NCBI GenBank assembly: GCA_049322615.1
Contig: JBMORX010000004.1
Location: forward strand, 1-25,935
Length of the DNA stretch: 25,935 nt
Origin: Patescibacteria group bacterium
GTDB lineage: Bacteria; Patescibacteriota; Microgenomatia; CAYGWK01
Reading direction: 5' to 3'
The notes beneath the pieces were generated by a model. The model worked only from the letters and a program-made list of their open reading frames with translations, did not search any database and was not told the DNA's origin. Positions within the stretch are counted from its first letter, which is position 1, and every line of letters starts with the position of its first letter. A program made the translations under genes and the position numbers. Below are positions 6,786-25,935 of the stretch, in pieces.

Positions 6786-6931
6786 ATGGACCACACAAGC
6801 TCAATTTATAAAATAAATACCCCACGAAAAAAGGGCAGGGCGATTTAAATTTTAGCAAAAATTGATCCGTAAATCTAGAAACAAGCTTGTTTTATTCACC
6901 TGATTTTTAGAAGTTAACTTACGAGACAGCG

Positions 6932-9535: not shown

Positions 9536-9542
9536 AATTTTA

Positions 9543-9551
9543 ATTTTAACA
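9543..9551 (-). promoter_or_regulatory. extended -10 (TGtTAAAAT), 7 nt upstream of the rtcB ATG
   Basis: Minus strand reads TGTTAAAAT-TAAAATT-ATG(9535). Confidence 0.45.
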
Positions 9552-9578
9552 CATTTTCTGGCATAACCACGTTTGACG

Positions 9579-9587
9579 TGGTATAAT
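9579..9587 (+). promoter_or_regulatory. extended -10 (TGgTATAAT), 9 nt upstream of ATG 9597
   Basis: TG 9579-9580, TATAAT 9582-9587. Confidence 0.55.
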
Positions 9588-9596
9588 ACGCCTTAT

Positions 9597-12423: not shown

Positions 12424-13707
12424 ATGAATTTGGCGGTGATTGGCGCTGGCTATGTTGGTTTGGTGACGGCTGCGGTTTTTGCCGATTTTGGCAACAAGGT
12501 TTGGGTTGTAGAAAGAGAGAACGATAAGATTGAAAAGCTTTCCCGAGGAAAAATTCCCTTTTACGAACCTGGATTAGAGAGATTGATTATCAAAAATATT
12601 AAAACTGGGCGGCTTAAATTTACCTTGAGTTATCGAGAGGCTATCCCTGACGCCGAAGTAATCTTTGTCTGTGTGGGCACCCCAAATAGAAATGGCGAGA
12701 TCGATTTGAATGATGTTCATTCAGCCACTAAATCTATCGCCAAGAATCTTAAAAAACCAGCGATTATTGTTATTAAAAGTACTGTCCCACCAGGAATAAA
12801 TAGCAAGTTAGAAAAATGGATGAAAAAATACACTAAGGTGAAGTTTGACATAGCCTCGGTACCCGAGTTTTTGCGGGAAGGTAAGGCTCTTGAAGATACT
12901 CTTAATCCTTATCGAGTAGTGATTGGGGCAGAGAAAAAATCAGTTGTCGATAAGTTGCTTAAACTTCACCACCCAATTTCTGGAGAAAGATTAATCTGCA
13001 CTCCCGCCAGCGCTCAACTGGTTAAATATGCCTCAAACGCCTTTCTGCCAACAAAAATTTCTTTTGCCAACGCCATTTCTGTTCTTTGTGAGAAATTCGG
13101 GGCTGATGTCAATAAGGTTATGGAGGGGATGGGTTTGGATAAGCGTATTGGACCAGATTTTCTGAAAGCGGGATTAGGTTACGGCGGTTCTTGTTTCCCA
13201 AAAGATATCGCGGCATTAATCAATTTAGCCAAAAAGGCAGATTATGATTTTAGAATTTTAAAAGCAGTTCAAGACACAAATCAGGCCCAGATTGATTATT
13301 TCCTTAAAAAGGTGATTCGGCTCTGTGGCGGTTCGGTTAAAGGAAAAACAATTGTTGTTCTAGGCTTAGCCTTCAAACCGGAGACTTCGGATATGCGCGA
13401 GGCACGTTCGATTCCAATTATTAGGAGATTAAAAAAAGAAGGAGCCAGAATTCGAGCGTGCGACCCGGTGGCAGCAAACGAAGCGAAAAACATTATTAAA
13501 GGGGTTAAATTTACCAGGGATCCCTATGATGCTTTAAAAGGGGCAGAAGCTTTGCTTTTAGTTACCGAATGGGACGAGTACCAAAATTTAGATTTTAAGA
13601 AAGTTAAAAAACTAATGAGAACTCCAGTTGTAGTTGATGGCAGAAATATTTATAATCGAAAGCGGTTAGAAAAATTAGGTTTTACTTATGAGGGGATAGG
13701 ACGATGA
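12424..13707 (+). CDS. ugd: UDP-glucose 6-dehydrogenase
   Basis: N-terminal GAGYVGL Rossmann motif and catalytic Cys block GYGGSCFPKD; 427 aa. Confidence 0.95.
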   Translation: MNLAVIGAGYVGLVTAAVFADFGNKVWVVERENDKIEKLSRGKIPFYEPGLERLIIKNIKTGRLKFTLSYREAIPDAEVIFVCVGTPNRNGEIDLNDVHSATKSIAKNLKKPAIIVIKSTVPPGINSKLEKWMKKYTKVKFDIASVPEFLREGKALEDTLNPYRVVIGAEKKSVVDKLLKLHHPISGERLICTPASAQLVKYASNAFLPTKISFANAISVLCEKFGADVNKVMEGMGLDKRIGPDFLKAGLGYGGSCFPKDIAALINLAKKADYDFRILKAVQDTNQAQIDYFLKKVIRLCGGSVKGKTIVVLGLAFKPETSDMREARSIPIIRRLKKEGARIRACDPVAANEAKNIIKGVKFTRDPYDALKGAEALLLVTEWDEYQNLDFKKVKKLMRTPVVVDGRNIYNRKRLEKLGFTYEGIGR

Positions 13708-14858
13708 AAGCTGTAATTATCATTCCCACTTATAACGAGCGAGAAAATATTGGAAAATTGATTGAAATACTAGAAGAGGTTTTTAAAAGGGCAAAGGGTT
13801 GGGAGATGGGAATTTTGGTGGTTGATGGGAATTCTCCCGATGGAACAGCTAAGATAGTAGAGGAAAAAGCTAAGCAATTTCCTAATGTCAAACTTCTTTT
13901 AGAAGAAAAAAAAGGTGGTTTGGGGGCGGCTTATCTTCGAGGAATGGATTATGCCTTTAAACATTTAGGAGCTGATTTGGCGTTTGAGTTTGATGCCGAT
14001 TTTTCCCATGATCCCCAAAAAATTCCTGAATTCTTAGAAAAGGTTGATCAAGGGGCGGATTTTGTCCTTGGTTCCCGCTATATCAAAGGCGGTTCGATAC
14101 CAGCCAATTGGGGTCTACATCGGAAGTTTTTAAGTGTGATAGGTAACTTGGTAATTAATCTGGTGATGTTGAGTTTTTCCCCTCGAGACTGGACAACGGG
14201 TTATCGGGCGATTAGAAAATGGGTTTATGAAAAGATAAAAGACAGAATTGATGAATTTAGGGGCTATACCTTTCAAATTTGTTTTTTATACAATGCCCGA
14301 CGTGTTGGAGCAAAAATTGCCGAAGTCCCTATCCATTTCGTTGACAGGGAAAAAGGGAAATCAAAAATGCCGGGAATAGAATATATGGCTCATACTTTAT
14401 TTTTTATCATCAAGAGTCGTTTGCTAGAAATTTTGACTCCTCGTTTTCTGAAATTTGCGGTCGTTGGGTTTGTCGGTTACTTAATTAATGCGGTTGGTTT
14501 GGAGTTTTTTTACCGCTTAGGAGTTCGTCCTGGTCCAGCAGCGGCTTTGGGAGCAGAACTGGCAATAATTTCTAATTTTACTTTAAACAATCTTTGGACC
14601 TTTGCGGAAAAGCAAATTTCGGGTCTTAAAAACATTCTTTGGAAATTTTTCCAGTTTAATCTGACCTCGTTTGGGGCGGTTATAATTCAGGGGGTGGTGG
14701 TTGGAGTTTTAGCTTTTCTCTTTGGCGATGCCTGGCGGCAGATTTATTTAGTTATTGCCATTGGTTTCTTCGTTTTCCCTTATAATTATTCAATGTACAA
14801 TATCTTCATCTGGAAAACCTGGAAGCTATCATGGTTAAAGGGTAAAGGAGGTTGGTGA
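13704..14858 (+). CDS. GT2 polyprenyl-phosphate glycosyltransferase (Dpm1/GtrB-like) fused to a C-terminal GtrA-like domain
   Basis: IIIPTYNERENI, VVDGNSPDGT and FDADFSH are GT2 blocks. The C-terminal FLKFAVVGFVGYLINAVGLEFFY...ISNFTLNNLWTF is GtrA-like. ATGA overlap with ugd. Confidence 0.85.
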   Translation: MKAVIIIPTYNERENIGKLIEILEEVFKRAKGWEMGILVVDGNSPDGTAKIVEEKAKQFPNVKLLLEEKKGGLGAAYLRGMDYAFKHLGADLAFEFDADFSHDPQKIPEFLEKVDQGADFVLGSRYIKGGSIPANWGLHRKFLSVIGNLVINLVMLSFSPRDWTTGYRAIRKWVYEKIKDRIDEFRGYTFQICFLYNARRVGAKIAEVPIHFVDREKGKSKMPGIEYMAHTLFFIIKSRLLEILTPRFLKFAVVGFVGYLINAVGLEFFYRLGVRPGPAAALGAELAIISNFTLNNLWTFAEKQISGLKNILWKFFQFNLTSFGAVIIQGVVVGVLAFLFGDAWRQIYLVIAIGFFVFPYNYSMYNIFIWKTWKLSWLKGKGGW

Positions 14859-14888
14859 TGCAGCGCGTTAGGGATCGGTCGGTAGGAA

Positions 14889-14940
14889 ACGTAACCCATC
14901 GACTTAACCGTACCGCGCAATCTCACCTTAACCGATTTAC
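14889..14940 (+). repeat. left direct repeat flanking the four-helix-bundle gene
   Basis: acgtaacccatcgACTTAACCGTACCGCGCaatctcaccttaaccgatttac. The 17-nt core at 14902-14918 is identical to 15380-15396. Confidence 0.75.
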
Positions 14941-14968
14941 GAATCCCTTTAAAGTGTGGGGGTACCAT

Positions 14969-15385
14969 ATGGGAGAAAAACCTAGAATAGTTAGTTTTAA
15001 AGACCTGGAAGTTTATCAGAATACTTATAAGGCGGGAATTATTGTGATGAAGAGAATTGTTCCAAAACTTCCTGATTCGGAGAAGTACGATCTTAAAGAT
15101 CAACTTTCTCGTTCCGTAAAAGCAATTCCTCGTTTAATCGCCGAAGGATACGGCAAGCGCCATCAAAGGTCAGGTTTTCAGAAATATTTAGATGACGCTA
15201 TTTCCGAATGTAACGAAACAGTGGTAAGTTTGGAACAATGCCGAGACATCTACGATATAGAGCCAGAACTTTGTGGAGAATTAGTTAATGTTTATGACAA
15301 ATCTGCGCGTCAATTATTTAAATTAGCTGAAGCTTGGGATAAATTTAAAGATCGCCGTCGCCAGCGACGTAACCAAACTACTTAA
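14969..15385 (+). CDS. four-helix-bundle protein (23S rRNA intervening-sequence protein / Avd family)
   Basis: FKDLEVYQNTYKAGIIVMKRIVPKLPDSEKYDLKDQLSRSVKAIPRLIAEGYGKRH...YLDDAISECNET matches the TIGR02436/PF05635-type family. ATG 14969 (G-rich SD 7 nt upstream) is preferred over the track's 14852. Confidence 0.8.
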   Translation: MGEKPRIVSFKDLEVYQNTYKAGIIVMKRIVPKLPDSEKYDLKDQLSRSVKAIPRLIAEGYGKRHQRSGFQKYLDDAISECNETVVSLEQCRDIYDIEPELCGELVNVYDKSARQLFKLAEAWDKFKDRRRQRRNQTT

Positions 15386-15430
15386 CCGTACCGCGCTGCT
15401 TCACCTTCACCGAAACCATAACCGATTCAC
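15367..15430 (+). repeat. right direct repeat flanking the four-helix-bundle gene
   Basis: acgtaaccaaactACTTAACCGTACCGCGCtgcttcaccttcaccgaaaccataaccgattcac. It spans from the cassette stop (15383-15385) to the stop of the minus-strand GT-C gene (15427-15429). Confidence 0.75.
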
Positions 15431-16629
15431 AAATATGGTGTCCAGTCGGCGACTGGGGCAGTGTTGTGAAGAATAAAGTTAATGGCGTAAAGATAGATTG
15501 GGATTAGAATAAAGAAGAAAGCGATTTTGAATTCTTTTTTCTCTAAGAAAGGCGAGAAGGCGAGAAGGTAAAAGGGTGCCAGCGGTAGACTATAGCGAGA
15601 TAAATCACGGTGGGCGACAAACAAGGTAGCGGTAAAAAATACCAGGGCAAAAGTAGCTAAATCATAAAGTTTTTGTTTAAATAATAAAACCACGGTTAAA
15701 GCCCCAAAAAGATAAATAAAAATCATATCTTCAAGCCAAAAGTCTCCTAGCCAATTTCTGCCGGTAACAAATGACTGGAGAGGTGGAAAAACTAGGTGGA
15801 AATTATCGCCCGAGTGAAAATAAGCCAGAAAATCACCGGTTTGAATTTTATAGAACCAAAAAACAGGGAGGATAGAAAGAGGAATTAGGAATAAGGGTAG
15901 GAGGTTAAACCAGGTTATCTTGTGACACAAACAGACGCTATAGCGTGATTTTGTGTCAGTGGGGCGATGGTTTAAATAATGGTAGCCTAGGTAAATAAGA
16001 TAAGCGACAAAAAGTAAAATTCCCGGAGTTTTAGTTATCTGGGCAATGGCGCCAAAAAGCCCAGCCAGGAAAAAGTCAAGAGTAACGCTTTTATATTTTA
16101 AAAAAAGATTGCTTTCTTTTTTTTCAAAAGCGCTTTTGAAAAAATAAAATGAGGCTAAAATAGCAAAAATAAAAAGAGGTTCGGGTGAGCCAATTGAGCG
16201 GACAACCAGCCAGCGAGCAGGAAGAAAAAGAAATAAGAGAGAAAGAAAGAAGGACGAGGCAGGAGTGGAGAGATTAAATTTCTTGACAAATAAATAAAAC
16301 ATCGAGACCGCCAAAATAGTCGTAAACAGAGTTACTGAAAGCATCGCCCAGGTGCCAGGAAGAAAAAGGTTAAAAAACTTGATAAGTAAGGGATAACCTG
16401 GAAGATGGGCTGGATAATATTCAAGGGGAAGTGGCAAAGAAAAAGAAGTTCCGATTAAAGTCTTATTGTACAAAGTTTTAGCCACAATAATATAATTTGG
16501 ACCATCATAATTGGCAAAAACGGAAAGCATCCCCTTGCCTAGTCCTAAAGAAAAAGGAAACCAGACCAGAAGAGTGGAAAAGATAGTAGTAAGACCTAGG
16601 AGTAAAAGATCTTTTGCGGTTTTCCTCAT
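15427..16629 (-). CDS. polytopic membrane protein, putative GT-C glycosyltransferase (PIG-V/PMT-like)
   Basis: At least 10 hydrophobic helices, with ANYDGPNYIIVAKTLY in the first external loop. ATG 16629 (MRKTAKDLLLLG...) is preferred over the track's 16794 because a -10-like TACAAT lies 6 nt upstream. Confidence 0.7.
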   Translation of the reverse strand: MRKTAKDLLLLGLTTIFSTLLVWFPFSLGLGKGMLSVFANYDGPNYIIVAKTLYNKTLIGTSFSLPLPLEYYPAHLPGYPLLIKFFNLFLPGTWAMLSVTLFTTILAVSMFYLFVKKFNLSTPASSFFLSLLFLFLPARWLVVRSIGSPEPLFIFAILASFYFFKSAFEKKESNLFLKYKSVTLDFFLAGLFGAIAQITKTPGILLFVAYLIYLGYHYLNHRPTDTKSRYSVCLCHKITWFNLLPLFLIPLSILPVFWFYKIQTGDFLAYFHSGDNFHLVFPPLQSFVTGRNWLGDFWLEDMIFIYLFGALTVVLLFKQKLYDLATFALVFFTATLFVAHRDLSRYSLPLAPFYLLAFSPFLEKKEFKIAFFFILIPIYLYAINFILHNTAPVADWTPYL

Positions 16630-16800
16630 GACCTTATTGTATACCACTCTGTTTTGATTTTGCAAAAAGTGGTATATACCTACCGTAGCTTTCAAATGAG
16701 AGTTTGGTTTGACTTTCCAATCAAAACTACTTTCCAAAATCAAAACTCCGTTAGGTATAACCCCTTGCAATTTGAAAGCAGAGGGGTATAGCACAAAATA

Positions 16801-16809
16801 TGATATAAT
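16801..16809 (+). promoter_or_regulatory. extended -10 (TGaTATAAT), 11 nt upstream of ATG 16821
   Basis: Read directly from the sequence. Confidence 0.5.
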
Positions 16810-16820
16810 TTTCTAGAAAG

Positions 16821-17519
16821 ATGGAAAAATTACCCGAGTTGTCTGTTTTTTTTCCTGCCTATAACGAGGAAAAAAATATCAAGGAAACAGTTTCCAAAGC
16901 CACTAAAATTTTACCAAAAATAGCCTCAAAATACGAAATTATTATCGTTGATGATGGCTCAACTGATAAAACCGGAGAAATTGCCGATAAAATTGCCAAA
17001 GATAATAAATCTGTTAGGGTGGTTCATCATCATCCGAACCGAGGCTATGGGGCGGCTTTAAAATCTGGTTTTTCAAAAAGTCGATACTCCTGGGTAGCCT
17101 TTACCGACGCCGATGGTCAATTTGATTTTTCAGAAATTGAGAACTTTTTGCCTCTTACTAGAAAAGCCGATCTTATCTTGGGATACCGAATAAAAAGGGC
17201 TGATTCGATTGTGAGGAGGATTTACACTTTTGGTTGGTTTGCAATCGCCCGGCTTCTTTTAGGATTGGATGTTAAAGATTATTCTTGCGGCTTTAAATTG
17301 ATAAAAAAAGAAGTTTTTGAGGCGGTTCAACCACTTGAAGGCGAGGAGAAGGTAACCCAAATTGAGCTTTTGGTAAAAGCAGAACGTCTTGGATTTAAGT
17401 TTGCCGAAGTTGGTGTTTCCCATTATCCCAGAAAATTTGGTCAGCAAACGGGAGCTAATTTGAAAGTCGTGGCTAAAAGCATTATTGATCTGGTTAAACT
17501 TTGGCAGAAGTTAAGATGA
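16821..17519 (+). CDS. GT2 family glycosyltransferase (polyprenyl-phosphate hexosyl synthase-like, GtrB/ArnC type)
   Basis: SVFFPAYNEEKNI, IIVDDGSTDKT and FTDADGQF; 232 aa. Confidence 0.9.
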   Translation: MEKLPELSVFFPAYNEEKNIKETVSKATKILPKIASKYEIIIVDDGSTDKTGEIADKIAKDNKSVRVVHHHPNRGYGAALKSGFSKSRYSWVAFTDADGQFDFSEIENFLPLTRKADLILGYRIKRADSIVRRIYTFGWFAIARLLLGLDVKDYSCGFKLIKKEVFEAVQPLEGEEKVTQIELLVKAERLGFKFAEVGVSHYPRKFGQQTGANLKVVAKSIIDLVKLWQKLR

Positions 17520-19039
17520 TGAAAGAAATTTTCCGTAAATGGCGGGCGTATCTGCCTATTTTTATAATTCTTCTGATTGCTTCAATTTTGCGATTATACC
17601 GAATCTCTGACTATATGACTTTTTTGGGAGATGAAGGAAGGGATGCGCTTGTGTGGTTGCGAATGGTTAGGGATGGGAAATTCACTTTAATAGGACCAAT
17701 GACATCGATTGGTAATATGTATTTAGGGCCACTGTATTATTATTTAATGCTTCCATTTTTCGTTTTATTTTTCTTGAGCCCCGTTGGTCCGGCAGTCGGG
17801 GTAGCCCTCTTTTCCTTAGCGACAATTTTCCTGCTCTGGTGGATAGGGAGAAAGTGGTTTGATGAAAAAGTGGGATTAATTGCCGCCCTTCTCTACGCAA
17901 TTTCGCCGGTGGTAATTATTTACTCCCGTTCTTCTTGGAATCCTAATGTCATGCCATTTTTCTCACTTTTGACAATTTGGGGAGTTTGGCAGTTTTGGCA
18001 AAAGGGAAATTTCTTTTGGCTTCCTGGAGTGGGAATTACTTTATCATTTGCTCTTCAGTCTCACTATTTGGGTCTTTTACTTATTCCTGTTGTTTTGGCC
18101 TTTCAGACAGTTACCCTCTTGAATCTCTTTAAAAAAAAGCAAGAACTTAAAAAATTTATTTTGCTATTTGCTATTTGCTATTTGCTATTTGCTATTTTAA
18201 CCATTCTCCCATTGGTTTGGTTTGATCTTCGCCACAATTTTTTGAATTACCAATCTTTCCATAAATTTTTTACAGAAAGGCAAACAACCGTTAACTTGAA
18301 AATATACAAAGCCATTCCCAATCTTTGGCCGTTGTGGGAAATGATGGTAACGAGGTTACTGGTGGCCAAGGAAATTGTCTGGGGCAAGATAACGGCGCTA
18401 GGTTTAATCCTGGGAGCAGTTCTTTTCCTTTGGAGGTCCGACCTCCTAAGAGGTCGGACCTCTTCAGGCAGAAGAGCTCTGGTTTTAATTTTAACCTGGT
18501 TGGTGGTGGGCTTTTTGGGAATGGGACTTTACAAACAACATATTTATGATCACTATTTTGGTTTTCTTTTCCCAGCCTTGTTTCTTTTGGCTGGCGTAGT
18601 TTTAGGAGAACTCTTAAGTCAGAAAAAAATTAGGAAAGTCGCCTTTGTCATTTGTTTATTGTTATTGGTTATCCTCAATTTTAAAAACTCTCCCTTGAGA
18701 GATCCGCCCAATTTTCAACTGAAGAGAGTTCGGGAAGTTGATCAAAAGATAATGGTTGAATCGGAAAATTTGCCCTTTAATTTGGGTTTAATTGCTAAAC
18801 AAAACTATGACGCAGGCTATAGCTTTTTCCTGGAGCTCTGGCGAAGAAAGCCGGTGGCAATTGAACCACTCAAGGCTAAGGAGACGATTACCGGGCAACT
18901 CTTTGTTATTTGCGAAGACCCAGTTTGTGAACCAATAAACCATCCAAAAGCGGAAATTGCCAATTTTGGTTGGAGTAGAATCGATAAGGAGTGGGAAATA
19001 GCTGGAGTTAAATTATTCAAATTAGTCCATACCCAATGA
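17516..19039 (+). CDS. GT-C membrane glycosyltransferase (ArnT/PMT_2-like)
   Basis: ATGA overlap with the upstream GT2 gene. TM1 is followed by FLGDEGRDALVWLRMVRDGKF (acidic loop). Many TM helices plus a C-terminal soluble domain. Confidence 0.85.
   Translation: MMKEIFRKWRAYLPIFIILLIASILRLYRISDYMTFLGDEGRDALVWLRMVRDGKFTLIGPMTSIGNMYLGPLYYYLMLPFFVLFFLSPVGPAVGVALFSLATIFLLWWIGRKWFDEKVGLIAALLYAISPVVIIYSRSSWNPNVMPFFSLLTIWGVWQFWQKGNFFWLPGVGITLSFALQSHYLGLLLIPVVLAFQTVTLLNLFKKKQELKKFILLFAICYLLFAILTILPLVWFDLRHNFLNYQSFHKFFTERQTTVNLKIYKAIPNLWPLWEMMVTRLLVAKEIVWGKITALGLILGAVLFLWRSDLLRGRTSSGRRALVLILTWLVVGFLGMGLYKQHIYDHYFGFLFPALFLLAGVVLGELLSQKKIRKVAFVICLLLLVILNFKNSPLRDPPNFQLKRVREVDQKIMVESENLPFNLGLIAKQNYDAGYSFFLELWRRKPVAIEPLKAKETITGQLFVICEDPVCEPINHPKAEIANFGWSRIDKEWEIAGVKLFKLVHTQ
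18161..18197 (+). repeat. perfect heptanucleotide tandem repeat (TTGCTAT) x5 inside the coding sequence
   Basis: ttgctat ttgctat ttgctat ttgctat ttgctat tt encodes LLFAICYLLFAIL. Confidence 0.95.
18433..18462. repeat. perfect 13-bp GC-rich inverted repeat with a 4-nt loop inside the coding sequence
   Basis: GAGGTCCGACCTC-ctaa-GAGGTCGGACCTC encodes WRSDLLRGRTSS. Confidence 0.95.
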
Positions 19040-20514: not shown

Positions 20515-21269
20515 ATCCCTATCTTTCAGTCATTATACCTTGTTATAACGAAGAGGATAACCTTAAAAGGGGTGTTCTTCTTGAGGTGGAAAACTTTTTG
20601 ACTAGGCAGCCTTACGAAAGTGAAGTCATTGTTTCAGACGATGGTTCCCTAGATGGAAGTTTAGAGTTGGTAGAGGCTTTTGTCAAAAAACATCCAAGGT
20701 TTAGACTTCTTAAAAATCCTCATAAGGGAAAACCATTCGCCGTTTTCGCCGGAGTGATAGTGGCTCAAGGAGAGATTACCCTTTTTACCGATATGGACCA
20801 GTCAGCTCCAATTTCTGAAATTGATAAACTTTTGCCCCATTTTCAGCAGGGATTCCAGGTAGTCATTGGCTCCCGAGGAAAAGAGCGGAAGAGATTTTCT
20901 TATTACAGAAAAATTATCTCTTGGGGATTTCGTTTTGCCAGAAGATTAGTTTTTCTTCGGGGAATTATCGATACCCAATGTGGATTTAAAGCTTTTAAAA
21001 CTGATGCAGGGAAAAAAATTTTTGAAAAAATGCAAATTTTCAAAGAGAAGGGAAAAGCAGCAGGCTGGAAAGTTGGAGCTTGGGATGTTGAGTTTTTATT
21101 TGTGGCGGAAAAACTAGGATATAGGACAAAAGAAGTTCCCGTCTCCTGGGAAGATAAAGACATAGCCGCAGGAAAGAAAAGAAATTTTCTTAAAGAGTCA
21201 AAAGAAATGCTTTTTGAAATTCTAAGAGTAAAACTGAATGATTTGAAAGGGAAATACGATACAAATTAA
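20511..21269 (+). CDS. GT2 family glycosyltransferase (polyprenyl-phosphate glycosyl synthase-like)
   Basis: GTGA overlap plus SD GGATGGAG. SVIIPCYNEEDNL, IVSDDGSLDGS and FTDMDQS. Confidence 0.9.
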   Translation: MNPYLSVIIPCYNEEDNLKRGVLLEVENFLTRQPYESEVIVSDDGSLDGSLELVEAFVKKHPRFRLLKNPHKGKPFAVFAGVIVAQGEITLFTDMDQSAPISEIDKLLPHFQQGFQVVIGSRGKERKRFSYYRKIISWGFRFARRLVFLRGIIDTQCGFKAFKTDAGKKIFEKMQIFKEKGKAAGWKVGAWDVEFLFVAEKLGYRTKEVPVSWEDKDIAAGKKRNFLKESKEMLFEILRVKLNDLKGKYDTN

Positions 21270-21278
21270 AAATTAAAA

Positions 21279-22799
21279 ATGAAAAATTTAAAATTACAAT
21301 TTAAAATTAAAAATTTTATATCGGAATGGAAATTGACAATAGTCTTTGGGTTGATGATTATTACTTTGTTTTTTGCTCTACGCCTTATTAATTTGACGAT
21401 TCTTCCTATTTTTGCCGATGAGGCGATTTATATTCGTTGGTCTCAAGTAATGCGGGTCGAACCGACTTTACGATTTCTTCCTCTTTCTGACGGAAAACAA
21501 CCTCTTTTTATGTGGTTAACCATTCCCTTTTTAAAATTTTTCCCTGATCCGTTGGTTGCCGGAAGAATGGTCTCTATTTTGGCTGGGTTTGCTACCATGG
21601 TGGGAATATTTTTACTAACACTTCAATTATTCAAATTACGGATAGCTCTGTTGGCGAGTTTACTTTATGCGGTTTCCCCTTTTACTGTTTTCTTTGACCG
21701 AATGGCTTTGGTTGACTCACTACTTTCTATGTTTGGAATTTGGGTTTTGTATTTTGGAATTTTGCTCACGAGATACCAGCGACTTGATTTAGCGATGATA
21801 ACAGGGATGATATTGGGGGCAGCTCTCTTAACAAAATCTCCGGCGACATTTTTTGCTATTCTTTTACCGGCAACAGTGATACTTTTGTCATTTAAATTAA
21901 AAAAAGATTTAATTGTTCAATTAATTAAAGTGGTAGGTTTATGGTCGGTGGTTTACTTTTTTGCTTATGGTTTGTATAACATCCAGCGCCTGGGTCCAAA
22001 TTTTCAAATGATTGCTCTTCGGAATAAAGACTATGTCTTTTCCCTAAGTCATCTTCTTACTAATCCTTTAGACCCATTTCAGTTTCATCTTGCCGAAATT
22101 TGGCAGTGGTTTGGCACACTTTTAACCTGGCCCATATTCTTAGTTAGTTTAGCGGGTATTTTTCTGGCTTTAAGAAAAAATCTAAAACCAGCCCTTTTGC
22201 TTTTGCTGTGGTTGACAGTTCCCCTGCTTGTCCAAGCCGAATTTGCCAAAGTTTTCACTGCCCGCTATATTTTGTTTTCCGTGCCAATCCTTTTAGTTTT
22301 TTCTGCCTTGGGATTATCGTTAGGAAGGCTTCTTTTTTGGTTAATTATTTTAATTTTCCCTTTATATTTTGATTTTTTGCTTCTAACTGATCCTTCAAGG
22401 GCGCCTCTCCCCAGGCGGGAAAGAGCCGGTTATCTTGAGGAGTGGACAGCCGGAACTGGGATTAAGGAGGCAGCCTACTATCTTAAAGAACAGGCAAAGA
22501 CAAGAAAAATATTAGTGGGGACAGAGGGTTACTTCGGCACTCTTCCAGATGGTTTACAAATGTATCTTGAGCGCATCCCAAATATAACAGTTGTCGGCAT
22601 TGGTCTTTATCCAGAAAAAGTTCCAGATTCACTTATCTCTGGTTTGACTGATAATGAGGTTTATCTTTTAATTAACAATGAAAGACTTGCCCTTAAACCG
22701 GAAGAGCATAATCTTACCTTGGTGGCTAATTATCCTAAGGCAAAAAGACCGAACGGAACTCATCAGTCCTTACTTCTTTTTCTGGTAAAATCGCGTTAG
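21279..22799 (+). CDS. GT-C membrane glycosyltransferase (ArnT/PMT_2-like)
   Basis: TM1 then PIFADEAIYIRWSQ (DE loop motif). Polytopic, with a C-terminal soluble domain. Confidence 0.85.
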   Translation: MKNLKLQFKIKNFISEWKLTIVFGLMIITLFFALRLINLTILPIFADEAIYIRWSQVMRVEPTLRFLPLSDGKQPLFMWLTIPFLKFFPDPLVAGRMVSILAGFATMVGIFLLTLQLFKLRIALLASLLYAVSPFTVFFDRMALVDSLLSMFGIWVLYFGILLTRYQRLDLAMITGMILGAALLTKSPATFFAILLPATVILLSFKLKKDLIVQLIKVVGLWSVVYFFAYGLYNIQRLGPNFQMIALRNKDYVFSLSHLLTNPLDPFQFHLAEIWQWFGTLLTWPIFLVSLAGIFLALRKNLKPALLLLLWLTVPLLVQAEFAKVFTARYILFSVPILLVFSALGLSLGRLLFWLIILIFPLYFDFLLLTDPSRAPLPRRERAGYLEEWTAGTGIKEAAYYLKEQAKTRKILVGTEGYFGTLPDGLQMYLERIPNITVVGIGLYPEKVPDSLISGLTDNEVYLLINNERLALKPEEHNLTLVANYPKAKRPNGTHQSLLLFLVKSR

Positions 22800-22817
22800 A
22801 CGCGGTAAAATGAGCGT

Positions 22818-24515
22818 ATGTTCAAGAAGACCCTCCTCTGGATGATTTTAGTTTTATTTTTGTCGGTTTTTTCTTTCAAGTCTCTTCTTGGCCCGGGTTA
22901 TTTTCCGATGCATGATGATCTTCAGATAGGCCGGCTTTATCAAATGGATTTATGTATAAAGGATGGTCAAATTCCTTGCCGTTGGGTCCCGGATATGGGT
23001 TTTGGCTATGGTTATCCTTTATTTAACTACTACCCGCCATTTCCGTATTATGCTGCAGAAATATTTCATTTAGTTGGTTTTAGTCTGATTGACTCGATTA
23101 AGATTCTTTTTATCTTGGGACTTGTCTTCTCTGGAATTTTTGCCTATCTTTTGGGAAGTCAGTTATGGGGAAAATATGGTGGTTTAGTAGTGGCTGTTTT
23201 TTATATTTATGCTCCATATCATGCGGTTGATGTTTATGTCCGAGGGGCACTAAATGAGTTTTGGGGATTGGTTTTCTTTCCGGCAATTTTTTGGGTGGTT
23301 TACAAAATTATCAAGGAAGAAAAGAAAATTTATGTAGCAACTTTAGCGCTATTTTTTGCCTTGCTACTTTTGTCTCATAATTTAATGGCTTTCTTCTTTG
23401 CTCCTGCGGTGGCAGCGTGGGGTATATTTTTACTTTGGTATCTTAAAAAACCCTGGAAAATCTTAATCCAACCTGCTCTAGGGGGAATTTGGGGAGTGGG
23501 TTTGGCGGCTTTTTTTACCTTACCGGTTATCTTTGAACAAAAATTTGTCCACGTTGAGACAATGTTTATTGGTTATTTTAATTATCTGGCGCATTTTGCG
23601 ACCATTAATCAGCTCTTTTTTAGTCGCTTTTGGGGTTATGGTCCATCAGTCTGGGGGACGGAGGATGGCATGCCTTTTCCTATTGGTCATTTACATTGGA
23701 TTATCGCTACTATTTCTTTAATTATTTTTACCTTTTTGTGGTTTAAGAAAAAAATAACTATCCATTACTATTTACTGTTCACTATTTACTATTTACTATT
23801 TTTAGGAACTGCCTTTTTAGCTCACCAGCGTTCCACATTTGTCTGGCAGGCTGTTCCGTTTTTGGCTTCAATGCAATTCCCATGGAGATTTGTGGGAATC
23901 TCCTCATTTTTTGCCACAATTTTAGCAGGGAGCATTTTTGTCTTAATTAAGACTGAGAACAAAGCCACAATTTTAGCCGTTTTAATGGTTCTGGCAGTTG
24001 TTGGGCTTAATTATTCCTTTTTTCAACCAGAAAAAATTTTAAATATTACTGACGAGGAGAAACTTTTTTCCGCTAAAGGTTGGTACAAACTCCAAACCGA
24101 TGCTATTTTTGATTACCTACCAATTTATGCCGAAAAACCTCCGGGTGAGAAGGCACCAGATCAGCCTTGGTTTGAAGAAGGCAAAGGAGAAATCAAAAAC
24201 TTTAAAAAAGGGACTAATTGGCAAAAATTTGAAGCTAACGTGGACTCCGATAAAGCCACGATAAGATTGCCTCTTTATGATTTTCCAGGAATGAGAGTGT
24301 GGGTGGACGGAAATGAGGTAAAGATTAATCATGATAATTTTCTGGGCTTAATCACCTTTCAAGTACCACCTGGCACTCATCAATTTTCAGCCCGTCTGAC
24401 CAACACCCCTGTCCGCACCGTTTCTAATTTAATTTCCCTGATTTCTTGGTTAGAGATAGTAGGATTTATGATAAAATGCAAGTATGGCAGAATTGACAAG
24501 CGGACCGGAAATTGA
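22818..24515 (+). CDS. large polytopic membrane protein, GT-C-like (resembles the COG5617 / PTPS-related / YfhO-type membrane glycosyltransferase class)
   Basis: N-terminal TM then GYFPMHDDLQIGRLYQMDLCIKDGQIPCRWVPDMGFGYGYPLFNYYPPFPYY. More than 10 TM helices and a C-terminal beta-rich domain. Family assignment is from memory. Confidence 0.65.
   Translation: MFKKTLLWMILVLFLSVFSFKSLLGPGYFPMHDDLQIGRLYQMDLCIKDGQIPCRWVPDMGFGYGYPLFNYYPPFPYYAAEIFHLVGFSLIDSIKILFILGLVFSGIFAYLLGSQLWGKYGGLVVAVFYIYAPYHAVDVYVRGALNEFWGLVFFPAIFWVVYKIIKEEKKIYVATLALFFALLLLSHNLMAFFFAPAVAAWGIFLLWYLKKPWKILIQPALGGIWGVGLAAFFTLPVIFEQKFVHVETMFIGYFNYLAHFATINQLFFSRFWGYGPSVWGTEDGMPFPIGHLHWIIATISLIIFTFLWFKKKITIHYYLLFTIYYLLFLGTAFLAHQRSTFVWQAVPFLASMQFPWRFVGISSFFATILAGSIFVLIKTENKATILAVLMVLAVVGLNYSFFQPEKILNITDEEKLFSAKGWYKLQTDAIFDYLPIYAEKPPGEKAPDQPWFEEGKGEIKNFKKGTNWQKFEANVDSDKATIRLPLYDFPGMRVWVDGNEVKINHDNFLGLITFQVPPGTHQFSARLTNTPVRTVSNLISLISWLEIVGFMIKCKYGRIDKRTGN
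23766..23801 (+). repeat. heptanucleotide tandem repeat, 5 units (3 perfect ACTATTT plus 2 degenerate), inside the coding sequence
   Basis: TACTATT TACTGTT CACTATT TACTATT TACTATT encodes YYLLFTIYYLLF. Confidence 0.85.
24469..24477 (+). promoter_or_regulatory. extended -10 (TGaTAAAAT), 6 nt upstream of the flippase ATG, embedded in the 3' end of the preceding gene
   Basis: TG 24469-24470, TAAAAT 24472-24477, GCAAGT, ATG 24484. Confidence 0.4.
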
Positions 24516-25935
24516 CCTTGAAACGGTTAAAGATAGGGCGGTTAAAGGGGTGATTGCTTTAACCGGTCGGACCTTCTTTCTTCAAGTAATTTCTTTCTTT
24601 GGTTTTTTCTTTTTAACCGTTTTTTTGGGGAGAGCGGACATTGGATTTTTCTTTGCTGTTTCGGAATTGGTCGCCATTCTGGGTTACTTTTCTGACATTG
24701 GTTTGGCGGCAGCTTTAATTCAAAAAAAAGAAAAACCATCTTTGGAGGATATTCGTAGTACTTTTACTATTCAACAGGCATTGGTTTTAGTCCTGGTCGG
24801 TTTGGTTTTTATTCTTACCCCATGGCTGAGGTTTTTTTATAATATTAGTCAATCTGGAATCTGGTTACTTTGGGCACTGACGGTTGGTTTCTTTCTGGCG
24901 TCATTAAAAACAATCCCTTCGGTTCTTTTAGAAAGAGACTTACGTTTTGATCTTTTGGTAGTAGTAGAAATCGTCGAATCTCTTCTCTTTTATGGGATAG
25001 CGGTTTTCCTTGCCTGGAGGGGTTTTGGTGTTATCAGCTATGCTTGGGCAGTTCTGACAAGAGGAGTAGTTGGCGTGATTTTAATCTATATTTTTTCACC
25101 CTGGCGCATTGGTTTTGCTTTTGAACTTGATTCTTTAAGACATCTGTTGCGTTTTGGCGTTCCCTATCAAGCCAATACTTTTTTGGCGGTTGTTAAAGAC
25201 CGTTTGATGAATGTCTTTTTATGGAAAATTATTGGCGCAGAAGGAGTGGGAATTTTGGGTTGGGCGCAAAAATGGGCGCAAATGCCTTTGCGTTTTATTA
25301 TGGACTCGGTAATGAAGGTGACATTTCCCGCTTATGCGAGAATGCAGGAGGAAAAGGAGGAGTTAAAGAAAGCGATTGAAAAAACTTTATATTTTATCTC
25401 TCTTTTGACTTTTCCGATGTTGGTTGGCATGGTTTTCTTAGCCAAGCCTCTAGTGTATCTGATTCCGAAATACGAAAAATGGGGGGTGGCTTTGTTGGCT
25501 TTGACTTTTTACGCCGCAAACAGCGTCTGGGCATCGGTGACGACTCCTTTAACTAATGCCCTGGCGGCAGTCGGTAAAATCAGAACAGTTTTTAAATTGA
25601 TGGTTATGTGGACAGTTTTAACCTGGATATTTTTTCCACTTTTGGCTATCAAATATGGCTATGATGGTGTTGCCTTAGCTTCTGCTTTGGTCGCCACGAG
25701 TTCAATCGTTGCTATCTTGGTGACCCGAAAAATTATTAGATTTGATTTTTGGCAGAGCATCAAAAAGCCGTTCTTTGCCAGTTTTATTATGGGAATTTTG
25801 CTTTTGCTTTTAACACCTTATTTAGCTAAAGATATCTTAGGAGTTACGCTCTTGGCAGTTTTCGGGGGTGTTTTCTACTTCGGTTTAATCTATCTCCTCG
25901 CTGGGCAGGAATTTATAACCGCTTTGCCAAAACCC
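24484..25935 (+). CDS. Wzx-like oligosaccharide/polysaccharide flippase (MOP superfamily), 3'-truncated by the window edge
   Basis: Open frame from ATG 24484 to the window end (484 codons). It is absent from the ORF track because it has no stop. MAELTSGPEIDLETVKDRAVKGVIALTGRTFFLQVISFFGFFFLTVFLGRADIGFFFAVSELVAILGYFSDIGLAAALIQKKE... and ...WAQKWAQMPLRFIMDSVMKVTFPAYARMQ are typical of polysaccharide biosynthesis (Wzx) proteins. Confidence 0.85.
   Translation, partial: MAELTSGPEIDLETVKDRAVKGVIALTGRTFFLQVISFFGFFFLTVFLGRADIGFFFAVSELVAILGYFSDIGLAAALIQKKEKPSLEDIRSTFTIQQALVLVLVGLVFILTPWLRFFYNISQSGIWLLWALTVGFFLASLKTIPSVLLERDLRFDLLVVVEIVESLLFYGIAVFLAWRGFGVISYAWAVLTRGVVGVILIYIFSPWRIGFAFELDSLRHLLRFGVPYQANTFLAVVKDRLMNVFLWKIIGAEGVGILGWAQKWAQMPLRFIMDSVMKVTFPAYARMQEEKEELKKAIEKTLYFISLLTFPMLVGMVFLAKPLVYLIPKYEKWGVALLALTFYAANSVWASVTTPLTNALAAVGKIRTVFKLMVMWTVLTWIFFPLLAIKYGYDGVALASALVATSSIVAILVTRKIIRFDFWQSIKKPFFASFIMGILLLLLTPYLAKDILGVTLLAVFGGVFYFGLIYLLAGQEFITALPKP

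Follow-up and report, generated by a model that had tools for sequence, protein, structure and literature searches.

A probable multi-component transmembrane glycosylation locus in a Microgenomates bacterium

Gene content and organization of the cluster

The window, by which we mean the whole stretch of 25,935 nucleotides analysed here, comes from a tiny-genome bacterium of the Microgenomates/CPR (Patescibacteria). It contains a tightly packed cluster of three predicted lipid-carrier sugar-loading GT2s, five predicted membrane GT-Cs and one flippase (Table 1). Open reading frame calls placed every gene where the original prediction had put it, including the Wzx-type flippase at the end of the cluster. 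Across modules 1 to 3, in the window and in its relatives, the gene content ratio is three GT2s to four or five GT-Cs. The window showed no initiating phosphoglycosyltransferase, polymerase or ligase, and the cluster has no gene for a small GtrA/SMR-type flippase that would serve GT2b or GT2c.

Table 1. Features of the cluster and its upstream flank, with positions in the window.
Feature	Position	Strand	Assignment and evidence
RmlA-like gene	10106..10834	+	Sugar-1-phosphate nucleotidylyltransferase; NTP_transferase PF00483 2e-50
ugd	12424..13707	+	UDP-glucose 6-dehydrogenase; 3 UDPG_MGDP_dh Pfam domains; TIGR03026 447 bits vs cut-off 190
GT2a	13704..14858	+	Polyprenyl-phosphate hexose synthase with C-terminal four-helix GtrA-like TM domain; PF00535 86.8 bits, PF04138 49.8 bits
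23S-rRNA-IVP gene	14852-15385		Inside "module 1"
Small GT-C	15427..16629	-	GT-C of 400 aa without soluble domain; family Pfam, AF2, Foldseek
Divergent intergenic region	16630..16820	.	191 bp, between small GT-C gene and GT2b
GT2b	16821..17519	+	TM-less polyprenyl-phosphate sugar synthase catalytic domain, 232 aa; PF00535 113.7 bits
GTC1	17516..19039	+	PMT_2/PMT-type GT-C; PF13231 40.5 bits, PF02366 31.4 bits, both above cut-off
GTC2	19036..20514	+	GT-C, old paralogue of GTC1; PF13231 41.6 bits
GT2c	20511..21269	+	TM-less polyprenyl-phosphate sugar synthase catalytic domain, 252 aa; PF00535 84.9 bits
GTC3	21279..22799	+	PMT_2-type GT-C; PF13231 50.1 bits
GTC4	22818..24515	+	PTPS_related/YfhO-like GT-C; family Pfam, AF2, Foldseek
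Wzx	24484..25935	+	Wzx/MOP-family flippase; PF13440 174.6 bits, PF01943 86.4 bits, NF007773 MOP flippase 151 bits

The predicted ATGA/GTGA start-stop overlaps were seen on sequence inspection at 13704, 17516, 19036, and 20511, each of 4 nt. They join the ugd stop to the GT2a start (ATGA), couple the GTC1 start to GT2b (ATGA), and place the GTG start of GT2c over the GTC2 stop. Wzx overlaps the 3' end of GTC4 by 32 nt. The genes from GT2b through Wzx probably form a single translationally coupled operon. The small GT-C gene converges on GT2a and is transcribed away from GT2b. The promoters of both transcription units probably lie between it and GT2b; the weak sigma-70-like matches in this region, at 16772-16799 (+) and 16665-16636 (-), are consensus matches only.

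Both ugd and the nucleotidyltransferase expected upstream of the cluster were present. The latter scored 233 bits against TIGR01207 rmlA, under the cut-off of 361; it is kept upstream in many relatives' loci and likely supplies an NDP-sugar. The gene ugd was found in just 4 of about 80 related loci, and it is therefore accessory and not the head of the pathway.

Predicted sugar-loading GT2s and membrane GT-Cs

By sequence, the nearest relatives of all three GT2s are polyprenyl-phosphate sugar synthases (P. furiosus DPMS, ArnC, and GtrB), which agrees with their predicted GtrB/Dpm1-like nature. The best PDB relatives of GT2b were ArnC (2e-15), DPMS (9e-14), and GtrB (1e-11), and those of GT2c were DPMS (1.8e-15), GtrB (1.4e-10), and ArnC (5e-10). 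GT2a aligned with PDB entry 5mlz from residue 1 to residue 340, TM domain included (E 1.3e-43), and was weakly similar to AglJ (NCBIfam). It had been described as a GT2::GtrA fusion; both domains were detected, but the protein is better read as homologous over its full length to archaeal type-III dolichyl-phosphate mannose synthase (DPMS; P. furiosus). GT2a is the only one of the three with a GtrA-like domain; no hydrophobic segment was found in GT2b, and no TM segment in GT2c.

The DxD motif was invariant in all three GT2s (55-71 orthologues each; 55/55 for GT2c), as were the counterparts of the dolichyl-phosphate-binding arginines R117 and R131 of PfDPMS. The GSR and YRKIIS motifs of GT2c correspond to the DPMS lipid-phosphate site. 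The GT2a motifs are conserved in 70 orthologues. The window's copy may have altered or reduced activity, because it carries Ser at the metal-binding Gln position of DPMS and Gln at the position of the phosphate-binding Lys178.

All five polytopic proteins are GT-Cs, GTC1-3 by Pfam and the small GT-C and GTC4 by family Pfam together with AF2 and Foldseek. A fold check had been set beforehand; Pfam, AF2 and Foldseek gave GT-C, and the prediction stood. The small GT-C had no Pfam match of its own, while 28 of its 43 relatives matched PMT (PF02366). Its AF2 model (pLDDT 86.3, pTM 0.89) returned GT-Cs in all of the top 28 PDB matches (AglB, Pmt4, PglB, ArnT, ALG9, EmbB, and PimE). The PMT_2 score of GTC4 itself was just 17 bits and not significant; in its family 41 of 42 relatives matched PTPS_related (PF10131), 24 PMT_2 (PF13231), and 13 YfhO (PF09586). 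The top 34 PDB matches of its model (pLDDT 87.2, pTM 0.90) were all GT-C. Neither protein had a sequence match in the PDB, and the TM-scores of their Foldseek matches were modest (0.4-0.55). The GTC4 model also predicts an extracytoplasmic beta-sandwich domain at about residues 451-527, before a final TM helix (531-556). Profile-profile comparison linked GTC1-4 together: GTC2 matched GTC1 at 27% identity (BLASTP 7e-35, hhalign 100%), and hhalign gave 98.4% for GTC3 against GTC1.

An acidic motif after TM1 had been predicted for every GT-C candidate. All five were confirmed directly after TM1, with an Asp that was invariant or nearly so (35-83 orthologues per orthogroup). The motifs were NYDGP in the small GT-C (Asp42; D42 in 83/83 orthologues), FLGDEGRD in GTC1 (D39 and D43, each in 68/69), YYDQGRD in GTC2 (D41, Q42, G43, R44, and D45 in 35/35), FADEAIY in GTC3 (D47 and E48, each in 47/48), and MHDD in GTC4 (D33 and D34 in 48/48). 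This conservation within each orthogroup suggests that the five enzymes are catalytically competent.

Conservation across Microgenomatia

The order GT2a / small GT-C / GT2b-GTC1-(GTC2) / GT2c-GTC3-GTC4 / Wzx recurs in Shapiro-, Woese-, Collier-, Blackburn-, and Daviesbacteria, and is shared by at least five candidate phyla of Microgenomatia. The original prediction, which could also have failed on gene order in relatives, thus held here as well. This kind of system is already known; the layout is unusually large and is kept across the whole class. Adjacency was observed in 61/70 loci for the small GT-C and GT2b, 60/65 for GT2b and GTC1, 40/52 for GT2c and GTC3, and 25/39 for GTC3 and GTC4. The small GT-C alone was found in 319 species-level genomes, and GTC2 in only about half of the relatives. 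In three relatives (L083, L088, and L058) GT2b and GTC1 are seamlessly fused into one protein. The fusions place a cytoplasmic GT2 directly before TM1, so that the DE loop of GTC1 must face outside; they give independent support to the pairing of GT2b with GTC1 and to this topology.

The cluster had been called triplicated. Three modules are indeed present, but they are not three copies: pairwise identity among the GT2s is only 25-31%, and with GTC1 and GTC2 at 27% these sequence distances indicate that the triplication is ancient, not recent, and that the paralogues predate the class. Beyond the equivalent of the window, relatives' loci run on with two to three cytoplasmic GT2s, a GT4, a DAGK_prokar gene (undecaprenol-kinase-like), and a PAP2 phosphatase.

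Proposed pathway and alternative explanations

In GtrABC and CsbB/GtcA/YfhO-type systems a GT2 makes a polyprenyl-phosphate sugar, a flippase moves it, and a GT-C with an acidic residue in its first loop transfers the sugar outside. The core of the original prediction was that GT2-made lipid-phosphate sugars would be used outside by GT-Cs in three neighbouring modules, and the sequence and structure tests all agree with it. We consider it quite probable that the locus serves multi-component transmembrane (extracytoplasmic) glycosylation. Systems with three or more components are known elsewhere: the genomes of L. lactis and B. subtilis each have three GT-A/GT-C pairs, and a Wzx-type flippase belongs to the S. 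pyogenes system (PMC8035078; PMC11127046).

In the proposed pathway the three diverged GT2s would each load a different sugar from a nucleotide sugar onto polyprenyl phosphate at the cytoplasmic face. The lack of membrane anchors in GT2b and GT2c counts against this explanation; these two probably dock on their GT-C neighbours. The second step, in which the lipid-phosphate sugars would cross the membrane, is the least certain. Classical substrates of Wzx proteins are diphosphate-linked oligosaccharides, and the conserved Wzx behind GTC4 may serve another substrate than the lipid-phosphate sugars. The GT2a product may cross via its own GtrA-like TM domain, by analogy with the possible self-flipping of type-III DPMS (PMC12992685) proposed for the P. 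furiosus enzyme. The GT2b and GT2c products may cross via Wzx, a role proposed for GacK in S. pyogenes, or via the partner GT-C itself. The latter route is reported for H. hispanica Agl23, which sits with the GT2 Agl22; the purified GT-C-like protein moved a lipid-linked oligosaccharide across the membrane in liposomes and is reported to be a flippase rather than a transferase (PMC11182771). In the third step, as fold and conserved residues suggest, the five GT-Cs would use the Asp in the first outside loop to pass sugars to acceptors. The GT-Cs outnumber the donors, and each donor is therefore probably used for two or more linkages or acceptors. For the acceptor we lean towards a cell-envelope glycan, made as a lipid-linked precursor by the downstream cytoplasmic GT2/GT4 enzymes seen in relatives and exported by Wzx; our remaining belief is divided between surface proteins and a lipoglycan.

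A less probable but serious alternative is that the GT-Cs do not decorate but act one after another to assemble a major envelope lipoglycan or wall polysaccharide, backbone and branches alike, from lipid-phosphate sugars, much as mycobacterial MptA/B/C, Emb, and Aft build LM/LAM and arabinogalactan from polyprenyl-phosphate mannose and decaprenyl-phosphate arabinose. On this view the locus would encode a central envelope pathway that is probably essential. Decoration modules of the Gtr type are typically variable and accessory; this cluster is kept class-wide beside housekeeping genes at only about 40-45% identity. The surplus of GT-Cs (4-5) over donors (3) and the further PMT_2 or PTPS_related genes in relatives point the same way, as does GTC4, which matches AftD, AftA, and EmbB and whose outside beta-sandwich resembles carbohydrate-binding domains and, by Foldseek, accessory domains of glycoside hydrolases. 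An essential system of the assembly type, B. anthracis GtsABC, is cited as a precedent (PMC8035078). However, a synthase for a lipid anchor or primer was not found, Foldseek matches to AglB, STT3, and PMT were equal to or better than those to Emb and Aft, and Wzx and the downstream cytoplasmic glycosyltransferases are in keeping with a conventional lipid-PP-linked repeat unit to which decoration is added afterwards.

It is rather unlikely that PMT-like GT-Cs here glycosylate (O- or N-linked) secreted or surface proteins such as S-layer proteins, pilins, or sortase substrates with Pro/Thr linkers, as in actinobacterial Pmt and the archaeal AglD/AglS/AglR and Agl22/Agl23 steps. GTC1 passes PF02366, as do many relatives of the small GT-C, and the DE motif occurs in GTC1 and GTC3. 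The top Foldseek matches were the oligosaccharyltransferases AglB, STT3, and PglB, plus Pmt4, GT2a is closest to archaeal DPMS, and Wzx weakly matched an "O-glycosylation flippase" model (114 bits vs cut-off 720). Yet PMT_2/PMT matches are also common to ArnT and to the wall-polymer GT-Cs GtlB, CsdD, and GacL (PMC8035078), and a Pfam search of the GT-Cs and their relatives detected no PMT_4TMC or MIR domain and neither the WWDYG motif nor the C-terminal domain of the STT3 type. The sortase-locus proteins at 1615-5186 had been proposed as Ser/Thr/Pro-rich acceptors. The fn3 protein (4362-5186) does have a long PTPTPT linker; the DUF11 protein is rich in Ser/Thr/Asn. Nothing ties these proteins to the cluster: rtcB, an RNaseH-like gene, a transposase, and trmD, housekeeping genes among them, stand in between, neighbourhood conservation resembles general synteny, and no protein substrate is directly linked to the cluster.

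We also regard as improbable that some GT-C-like proteins are flippases or scramblases, not transferases, for the products of adjacent TM-less GT2s, following Agl22/Agl23 logic. GTC1 might, for example, flip the product of GT2b and GTC3 that of GT2c, which would leave the transfer to GTC2, GTC4, and the small GT-C. The Agl23 liposome result, the GT2b::GTC1 fusions, the missing dedicated small flippase, and the two GT-Cs in each of modules 2 and 3 are consistent with such roles. GTC1-3 also match TIGR03663, the "flippase activity-associated protein Agl23" model, but at 43, 36.5, and 31.7 bits these scores are far under its cut-off of 126, and PMT_2 scores are equally good. In GTC1 and GTC3 neither the loop-1 Asp (with Glu) nor the GRD after it varies, as expected of active transferases. 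If GTC1 only flips, the many relatives lacking GTC2 would have a module 2 without a transferase. Flipping and transfer are, moreover, not mutually exclusive.

Very unlikely is an ArnT-like addition of sugars (e.g. uronic-acid-derived via ugd) to a membrane glycolipid or lipid anchor that would alter surface charge: ugd is directly upstream and translationally coupled to GT2a, ArnC is the best solved relative of GT2b, and ArnT is among the Foldseek matches, but ArnT was never the top match, ugd is missing from nearly all relatives with the cluster, ArnA, ArnB, and ArnD homologues are absent, and CPR bacteria of the class Microgenomatia are not known to make lipid A.

The Wzx gene, cut at the window end, holds 484 codons there; the Wzx proteins of relatives are 485-494 aa long.

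Organization and conservation of the cluster

By sequence and structure, the cluster comprises three polyprenyl-phosphate sugar synthase-like GT2 enzymes (GT2a, GT2b, and GT2c), five polytopic proteins with a GT-C fold (GTC1 to GTC4 and a small GT-C), and one MOP flippase. Acidic residues on the outside are conserved, the genes are tightly packed as in an operon and keep their pairing, and fusions occur naturally in relatives. The core of the original prediction, in which GT2 enzymes make lipid-phosphate sugars that GT-C proteins transfer outside the membrane, was supported by sequence, structure, and synteny. Every gene it named was recovered in our ORF list at identical coordinates, and families were assigned with Pfam and NCBIfam models (see the table). 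The predicted 4-nt start/stop overlaps were present in ugd/GT2a, GT2b/GTC1, GTC1/GTC2, and GTC2/GT2c, and GTC4 and Wzx overlapped by 32 nt. The Wzx gene, which is cut at the window end, belongs to the Polysacc_synt_3/Polysacc_synt family; its product also matched PF01943 (86.4 bits) and scored 151 bits against NF007773, below the equivalog cut-off of 273. The small GT-C gene and GT2b are separated by a divergent intergenic region of 191 bp, and a promoter scan of the window placed weak promoter-like sites facing in opposite directions there (16.6-16.8 kb). Promoter and terminator scans of the window were otherwise uninformative, and Rfam and tRNA scans of it were empty.

Coordinates of features in the window and, where a locus handle (L number) is given, in related genomic loci
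Feature	Position	Strand	Family evidence or content
ORF with internal repeat	1072-1476		no Pfam match
Sortase locus	1609-5704	+	DUF11 protein, fn3 protein, sortase
DUF3800 gene	6093-6794	-	
CAP/RtcB block	6967-10091		CAP-domain protein, small ORF, RtcB, RNaseH-like (PF04308)
RmlA-like nucleotidyltransferase	10106-10834	+	PF00483, 2e-50
IS200-like Y1 transposase	10913-11584	-	PF01797
ugd, nucleotide-sugar 6-dehydrogenase	12424-13707	+	TIGR03026, 447 bits vs. 190
GT2a	13704-14858	+	GT2 domain and GtrA_DPMS_TM domain
23S-rRNA-IVP gene	14852-15385	+	PF05635
Small GT-C (400 aa)	15427-16629	-	no Pfam or NCBIfam match
Divergent intergenic region	16630-16820		
GT2b (232 aa)	16821-17519	+	plain GT2 domain
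GTC1	17516-19039	+	PMT_2 above cut-off; PMT also passed
GTC2	19036-20514	+	PMT_2 above cut-off
GT2c (252 aa)	20511-21269	+	plain GT2 domain
GTC3	21279-22799	+	PMT_2 above cut-off
GTC4	22818-24515	+	PMT_2, 17 bits only
MOP/Wzx flippase	24484-window end	+	PF13440, 174.6 bits (cut-off 23)
GT2b::GTC1 fusion	L083:7765-9978	-	
GT2b::GTC1 fusion	L088:3988-6207	+	
GT2b::GTC1 fusion	L058:8562-9947	-	
Two chimeric ORFs	L069:3682-7668		
Large post-Wzx protein	L006:13876-16890		
Large post-Wzx protein	L087:13153-16260		
Large post-Wzx protein	L088:14478-16277		

The small GT-C family was present in 319 species-level genomes, and the best 80 of these were compared, including Shapiro-, Woese-, Collier-, Blackburn-, and Daviesbacteria. 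The cluster order recurred across these Microgenomatia relatives as trmD<, GT2a>, small GT-C<, GT2b>, GTC1>, (GTC2>), GT2c>, GTC3>, GTC4>, Wzx>, and it persisted while orthologue identity dropped to about 40-45%. The small GT-C gene adjoined GT2b in 61 of 70 loci, GT2b adjoined GTC1 in 60 of 65, GT2c adjoined GTC3 in 40 of 52, and GTC3 adjoined GTC4 in 25 of 39; local gene order is very stable in this lineage, so that gene neighbourhood by itself says little about function. GTC2 was absent from about half of the related loci, and in L009 and L015 the three GT2 genes were grouped together with all parts retained. Orthologues across the class shared 40-70% identity with their window counterparts, as compared to 25-31% among the window's own paralogues, and the modules therefore predate the class. 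Three modules are indeed present, as originally described, and a recent tandem triplication is rejected on the low identity of the paralogues. The role of ugd as an integral first step was likewise rejected, because only four related loci carry the gene. The window ugd, identified as a UDP-glucose 6-dehydrogenase, exceeded the cut-offs of the three UDPG_MGDP_dh domain models PF03721, PF00984, and PF03720 and fell below those of the TuaD and AglM equivalog models, so that its exact substrate is not fixed. Related complete chromosomes measure 0.98 and 1.08 Mb, making the guess of a very small genome reasonable, and the 13.5-kb region corresponds to about 1.3% of a ~1-Mb genome.

Between GT2a and the small GT-C gene we observed a 23S-rRNA-IVP gene (four-helix bundle) that was absent from the original prediction and whose true start is probably an ATG near 14969. 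At this position relatives carry nothing, a gene of the HIT family (L003), or an opposite-strand IVP gene (L010), which suggests that the gene is a mobile or variable element inserted into an otherwise fixed cluster. The IS200-like transposase gene is flanked by the RmlA-like gene and trmD, a position at which relatives carry an NAD-dependent sugar epimerase/dehydratase gene that is missing there in the window genome. In many relatives the CAP/RtcB block keeps its synteny with the cluster. Many cluster-bearing MAG records (L007, L014, L018, L019, and others) share the flanking trmD/CAP/RtcB synteny and are titled "uncultured Gammaproteobacteria", "Pseudomonadales", "Bathyarchaeia archaeon", "Clostridia bacterium", or "Nevskiaceae"; these titles are evidently wrong taxonomic labels.

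Active sites and folds of the glycosyltransferases

Orthologues of each protein were taken from the 80 related loci and aligned. The closest solved relatives of all three GT2s were polyprenyl-phosphate glycosyltransferases: dolichyl-phosphate mannose synthase (DPMS) of P. furiosus (PfDPMS, PDB 5mlz) for GT2a (E = 1.3e-43, spanning catalytic and TM domains), ArnC for GT2b (2e-15, followed by DPMS and GtrB), and DPMS for GT2c (2e-15, followed by GtrB and ArnC). The DxD motif was invariant in all three, as were the counterparts of R117 and R131, which hold dolichyl phosphate in PfDPMS. Judged from these sequences, GT2a, GT2b, and GT2c are predicted to be polyprenyl-phosphate sugar synthases. Hydrophobic segments are absent from GT2b and GT2c, which both stop where the TM domain of GT2a starts.

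The alignment of GT2a with PfDPMS (PDB 5mlz/9ep0) takes in the catalytic domain, the interface helices, and the four TM helices of the GtrA-like domain, and most GT2a orthologues (n = 70) retain DxDxQH, SR, R131, S135, K178, N248, and N277. In type-III DPMS, the DADxQHPP motif (residues 89-96) binds the metal and the donor diphosphate, and Arg117 (SRY), Arg131, Ser135, and Lys178 bind the lipid phosphate; the definition of the type also includes an Asn248/Asn277 polar pocket, a gating Phe338, and a four-helix GtrA-like TM domain (PMC12992685). The window GT2a reads DADFSHDP at the first motif, with Ser101 for Gln93 and Asp103 for Pro95, and its orthologues carry Gln in 69/70, His in 60/70, and the first Pro in 48/70. 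At the lipid-phosphate site S124-R125-Y126, R140, and S144 were kept and Gln191 replaced Lys178 (orthologues: R 70/70, R 70/70, S 56/70, and K 58/70). Both pocket asparagines were kept (N262, 68/70 orthologues; N291, 69/70), and the alignment to 5mlz stops short of Phe338. Because two motifs fail (Ser101 in place of Gln93 and Gln191 in place of Lys178), the window GT2a was not filed as a type-III DPMS, and this copy may handle donor or metal differently or be less active. The presence of ugd showed no correlation with unusual GT2a active-site residues. The "GT2::GtrA fusion" of the original prediction does contain a PF04138 domain (49.8 bits), and the protein is better termed a bacterial homologue of type-III DPMS. 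According to a 2026 survey, type-III DPMS is limited to hyperthermophilic archaea (PMC12992685). Unlike PfDPMS, GT2a belongs to bacteria known from metagenomes of presumably mesophilic groundwater or sediment, and its carrier would be a bacterial polyprenol. Its Microgenomatia orthogroup suggests a bacterial branch of type-III DPMS-like enzymes, which would thus extend beyond hyperthermophilic archaea.

The acidic residue expected directly after TM1 was an invariant or near-invariant Asp in every GT-C, with 35-83 orthologues each: D39 in GTC1 (68/69, with E40 in 55/69 and D43 in 68/69), D41 in GTC2 (35/35), D47 in GTC3 (47/48, with E48 in 47/48), D33 and D34 in GTC4 (48/48 each), and D42 in the small GT-C (83/83). 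No usable match came from direct PDB sequence searches, whether the query was GTC1, GTC4, the small GT-C, or either of two family profiles, and for the small GT-C and GTC4 even family profiles yielded no PDB sequence match; fold comparison was therefore used. Each of these two proteins has thousands of homologues. Among the aligned relatives of the small GT-C, 28/43 matched PF02366 PMT and 9/43 matched PMT_2. GTC4 had no family match of its own at E<=0.01; its relatives (n = 42, at 49-73% identity) matched PF10131 PTPS_related (41, best 9e-15), PMT_2 (24), YfhO PF09586 (13), and STT3 (6). We take the PMT, PMT_2, PTPS_related, YfhO, and STT3 families all to be GT-C.

AlphaFold2 models from the relatives' alignments were confident, with pLDDT 86.3 and pTM 0.89 for the small GT-C and pLDDT 87.2 and pTM 0.90 for GTC4. 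Foldseek comparisons with the PDB returned only GT-C enzymes among the first 28 (small GT-C) and the first 34 (GTC4) matches, spanning AglB, STT3, PglB, Pmt1/2/4, ArnT, ALG3/9/12, DPY19, EmbA/B, AftA/D, and PimE, with TM-scores of 0.4-0.55 overall. The GTC4 model contains an extracytoplasmic beta-sandwich (residues ~451-527) followed by a final TM helix, and by Foldseek this domain resembles the accessory beta-sandwich domains of glycoside hydrolases. Profile-profile comparison linked GTC1-4 at 95-100% probability (50% for the GTC3/GTC4 pair), and the small GT-C was linked weakly (65% to GTC3). Both models thus match GT-C structures, and the alternative that these proteins lack a GT-C fold fails because family Pfam matches, models, Foldseek matches, and profile links agree.

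Narrower identities were not assigned. PF02366 PMT was passed by GTC1 only (31.4 vs. 22.7 bits, with D39-E40); GTC3 has the loop DE but a PMT_2 match only, and GTC2 has DQ. The PMT and PMT_2 models also match ArnT-like and wall-polymer GT-Cs. A Pfam search at E<=0.01 found no PMT_4TMC or MIR domain in the five GT-Cs, and for this reason none of them was filed as a GT39 PMT. Nor was any filed as Agl23, the flippase activity-associated family of TIGR03663; with an NCBIfam cut-off of 126 bits, GTC1 scored 43.1, GTC2 36.5, and GTC3 31.7.

GT2b and GTC1 form a single seamless ORF of 738-739 aa in L083 (Daviesbacteria), L088, and L058, the last being broken by masked bases. The layout is GT2 domain, short linker, TM1, and then FLGDEGRD. 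L088 and L058 are closer relatives of the window than L083. These fusions support functional pairing, and the acidic loop faces outside because the fused NDP-sugar-using domain must be cytoplasmic. Given the ATGA overlap of GT2b and GTC1 in the window, a 1-nt change could create such a fusion. In L069, two ORFs each join about the first 110 GT2 residues to about the last 350 GT-C residues, pairing GT2b with GTC1 and GT2c with GTC3. They were not counted as fusions owing to their internal deletions and a gene order inverted relative to every other locus; L069 is likely an assembly problem, the alternative being a decayed cluster.

Relation to known systems, flipping, and acceptor

In its logic the cluster follows known transmembrane glycosylation systems of three or more components (PMC11127046, PMC8035078) and is not mechanistically surprising. 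Such systems are GtrA/GtrB/GtrC in Shigella and Salmonella phages and CsbB/GtcA/YfhO, GtlA/GtlB, CsdAB/CD/EF with CflA, and GacI/J/K/L in Gram-positives. As in these, the gene of a GT-A-fold GT2 lipid-phosphate sugar synthase adjoins a PMT_2 or YfhO-type GT-C gene and the loop-1 acidic residue is present; for S. pyogenes, a Wzx-type flippase (GacK) has been proposed. Three GT-A/GT-C pairs per genome are found in L. lactis and likewise in B. subtilis (PMC8035078, PMC11127046). In contrast to the 1:1 ratio of these systems, the window has three synthases and five GT-Cs (3:5, or 3:4) in one ~12-kb locus with largely coupled translation, two of its synthases lack the usual C-terminal TM helices, a free-standing GtrA/GtcA gene is absent from the cluster, and some relatives fuse GT2 and GT-C. 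Unlike variable or phage-borne decoration modules, the locus is class-wide and lies beside housekeeping genes.

The archaeal Agl steps that use Dol-P-hexose outside the cell (AglD/AglR/AglS of H. volcanii and Agl22/Agl23 of H. hispanica) also bring together a GT2 Dol-P-hexose synthase, a GT-C-like membrane protein, and a Wzx-like protein. The resemblance is weak (AglJ model 66 bits, Agl23 43 bits, all far below family cut-offs), and in contrast to those steps the host is a bacterium and no AglB/STT3 oligosaccharyltransferase was found. The open-access literature searched contained no description of this cluster in Microgenomates, CPR, or Patescibacteria, an absence that is not proof.

In the scheme we propose, each GT2 would make a distinct lipid-phosphate monosaccharide, these would be flipped across the membrane, and the GT-Cs would pass the sugars to extracytoplasmic acceptors. 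Of these steps, flipping is the least secure. It could be performed by the TM domain of GT2a itself, in the way that was proposed for PfDPMS and its product in a crystallographic study of 2026 (PMC12992685). Alternatively, the Wzx protein could serve, a Wzx-type flippase having been proposed for Und-P-GlcNAc in S. pyogenes (PMC8035078). As a third option, the GT-C partners could do the flipping: in liposomes, a lipid-linked glycan was translocated by H. hispanica Agl23, a GT-C-like member of TIGR03663 that is encoded beside the GT2 Agl22 (PMC11182771). Within the cluster, the GtrA-like domain is confined to the GT2a C-terminus, the Wzx/MOP protein closes the gene series, and there is no free-standing small flippase ORF. 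Flippase identity is still open for multi-component glycosylation systems (PMC11127046), and the natural GT2b::GTC1 fusions could inform both sugar passage from synthase to GT-C and the role of GT-Cs in flipping.

Directly after Wzx, relatives encode a large conserved protein of about 600-1045 aa (599-1035 aa in L006, L087, and L088) without a credible Pfam match even at E<=1, which could be the missing polymerase, a ligase, or another GT-C. Further on follow two or three ~300-aa GT2s, a GT4, a methyltransferase, DAGK_prokar (which we take to be the undecaprenol kinase family), a PAP2 phosphatase, and more PMT_2 genes. The window stops short of these genes. Their combination is that of a locus for an envelope polysaccharide built on a lipid carrier, and mainly because of it we lean slightly towards an envelope glycan as the acceptor, by decoration or true assembly. 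Surface proteins are improbable acceptors; the sortase-locus proteins had been put forward as candidates, and that link found no support beyond general synteny. The remaining probability falls to a lipoglycan, a lipid, or another acceptor.

A more far-reaching but doubtful reading is that Microgenomatia with their ~1-Mb genomes keep a dedicated, probably essential outside-membrane assembly line that builds the main envelope glycopolymer. Few lipid-phosphate sugar donors would supply four to five GT-Cs that build and do not merely decorate, a type-III-DPMS-like enzyme would flip its own product, and GT2::GT-C fusions would hand the donor to or through the partner. If true, the assembly line would be a functional analogue, in an unrelated lineage, of mycobacterial and corynebacterial LM/LAM and arabinogalactan synthesis (Ppm1 with MptA/B/C, PimE, EmbA-C, and AftA-D). 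The two have in common many GT-Cs supplied outside the membrane by few polyprenyl-phosphate sugar donors, a TM-less GT2 catalytic domain paired with a membrane partner, and GT-Cs with outside carbohydrate-binding-type domains, and EmbB, AftA, AftD, and PimE were among the Foldseek matches. They differ in that sequence-level orthology and the decaprenyl-P-arabinose pathway (DPPRS, DprE1/E2) are lacking here, and the window genes are clustered whereas the mycobacterial genes are scattered.

CPR/Patescibacteria are uncultured, ultra-small, and mostly episymbiotic, and to our knowledge almost nothing has been established experimentally about their cell envelope. Since its order is kept class-wide and it occupies more than 1% of a ~1-Mb genome, the 12-kb locus is a strong candidate for making or finishing the main surface glycan of Microgenomatia. 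It would help in the study of host attachment and phage receptors and in labelling the cells with lectins or antibodies, and the cluster offers CPR envelope biology a starting point that is well defined, conserved, and testable.

Surface proteins and the window start

The sortase locus encodes a 917-aa DUF11 protein, rich in Ser, Thr, and Asn and ending in a TM segment and a basic tail; a 274-aa fn3 protein, which has a long linker of Pro and Thr and ends in LGVTG, a TM segment, and a basic tail; and a sortase. The LGVTG end may be a non-canonical sorting signal. Genes for fn3, sortase, and CAP proteins recur upstream in several relatives. Bases 100-1070 of the window contained no ORF of at least 80 aa, no Rfam family, and no tRNA; the ORF that follows is Gly/Ser-rich and has the internal repeat GWYNxANAGSGSGDRxMSTG in two copies. 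Bases 2 to ~85 (frame 2) read DNWVVYYNQVRPHQALGYLTPYQYY, apparently the C-terminus of an rve-type transposase whose gene is truncated where the window begins.
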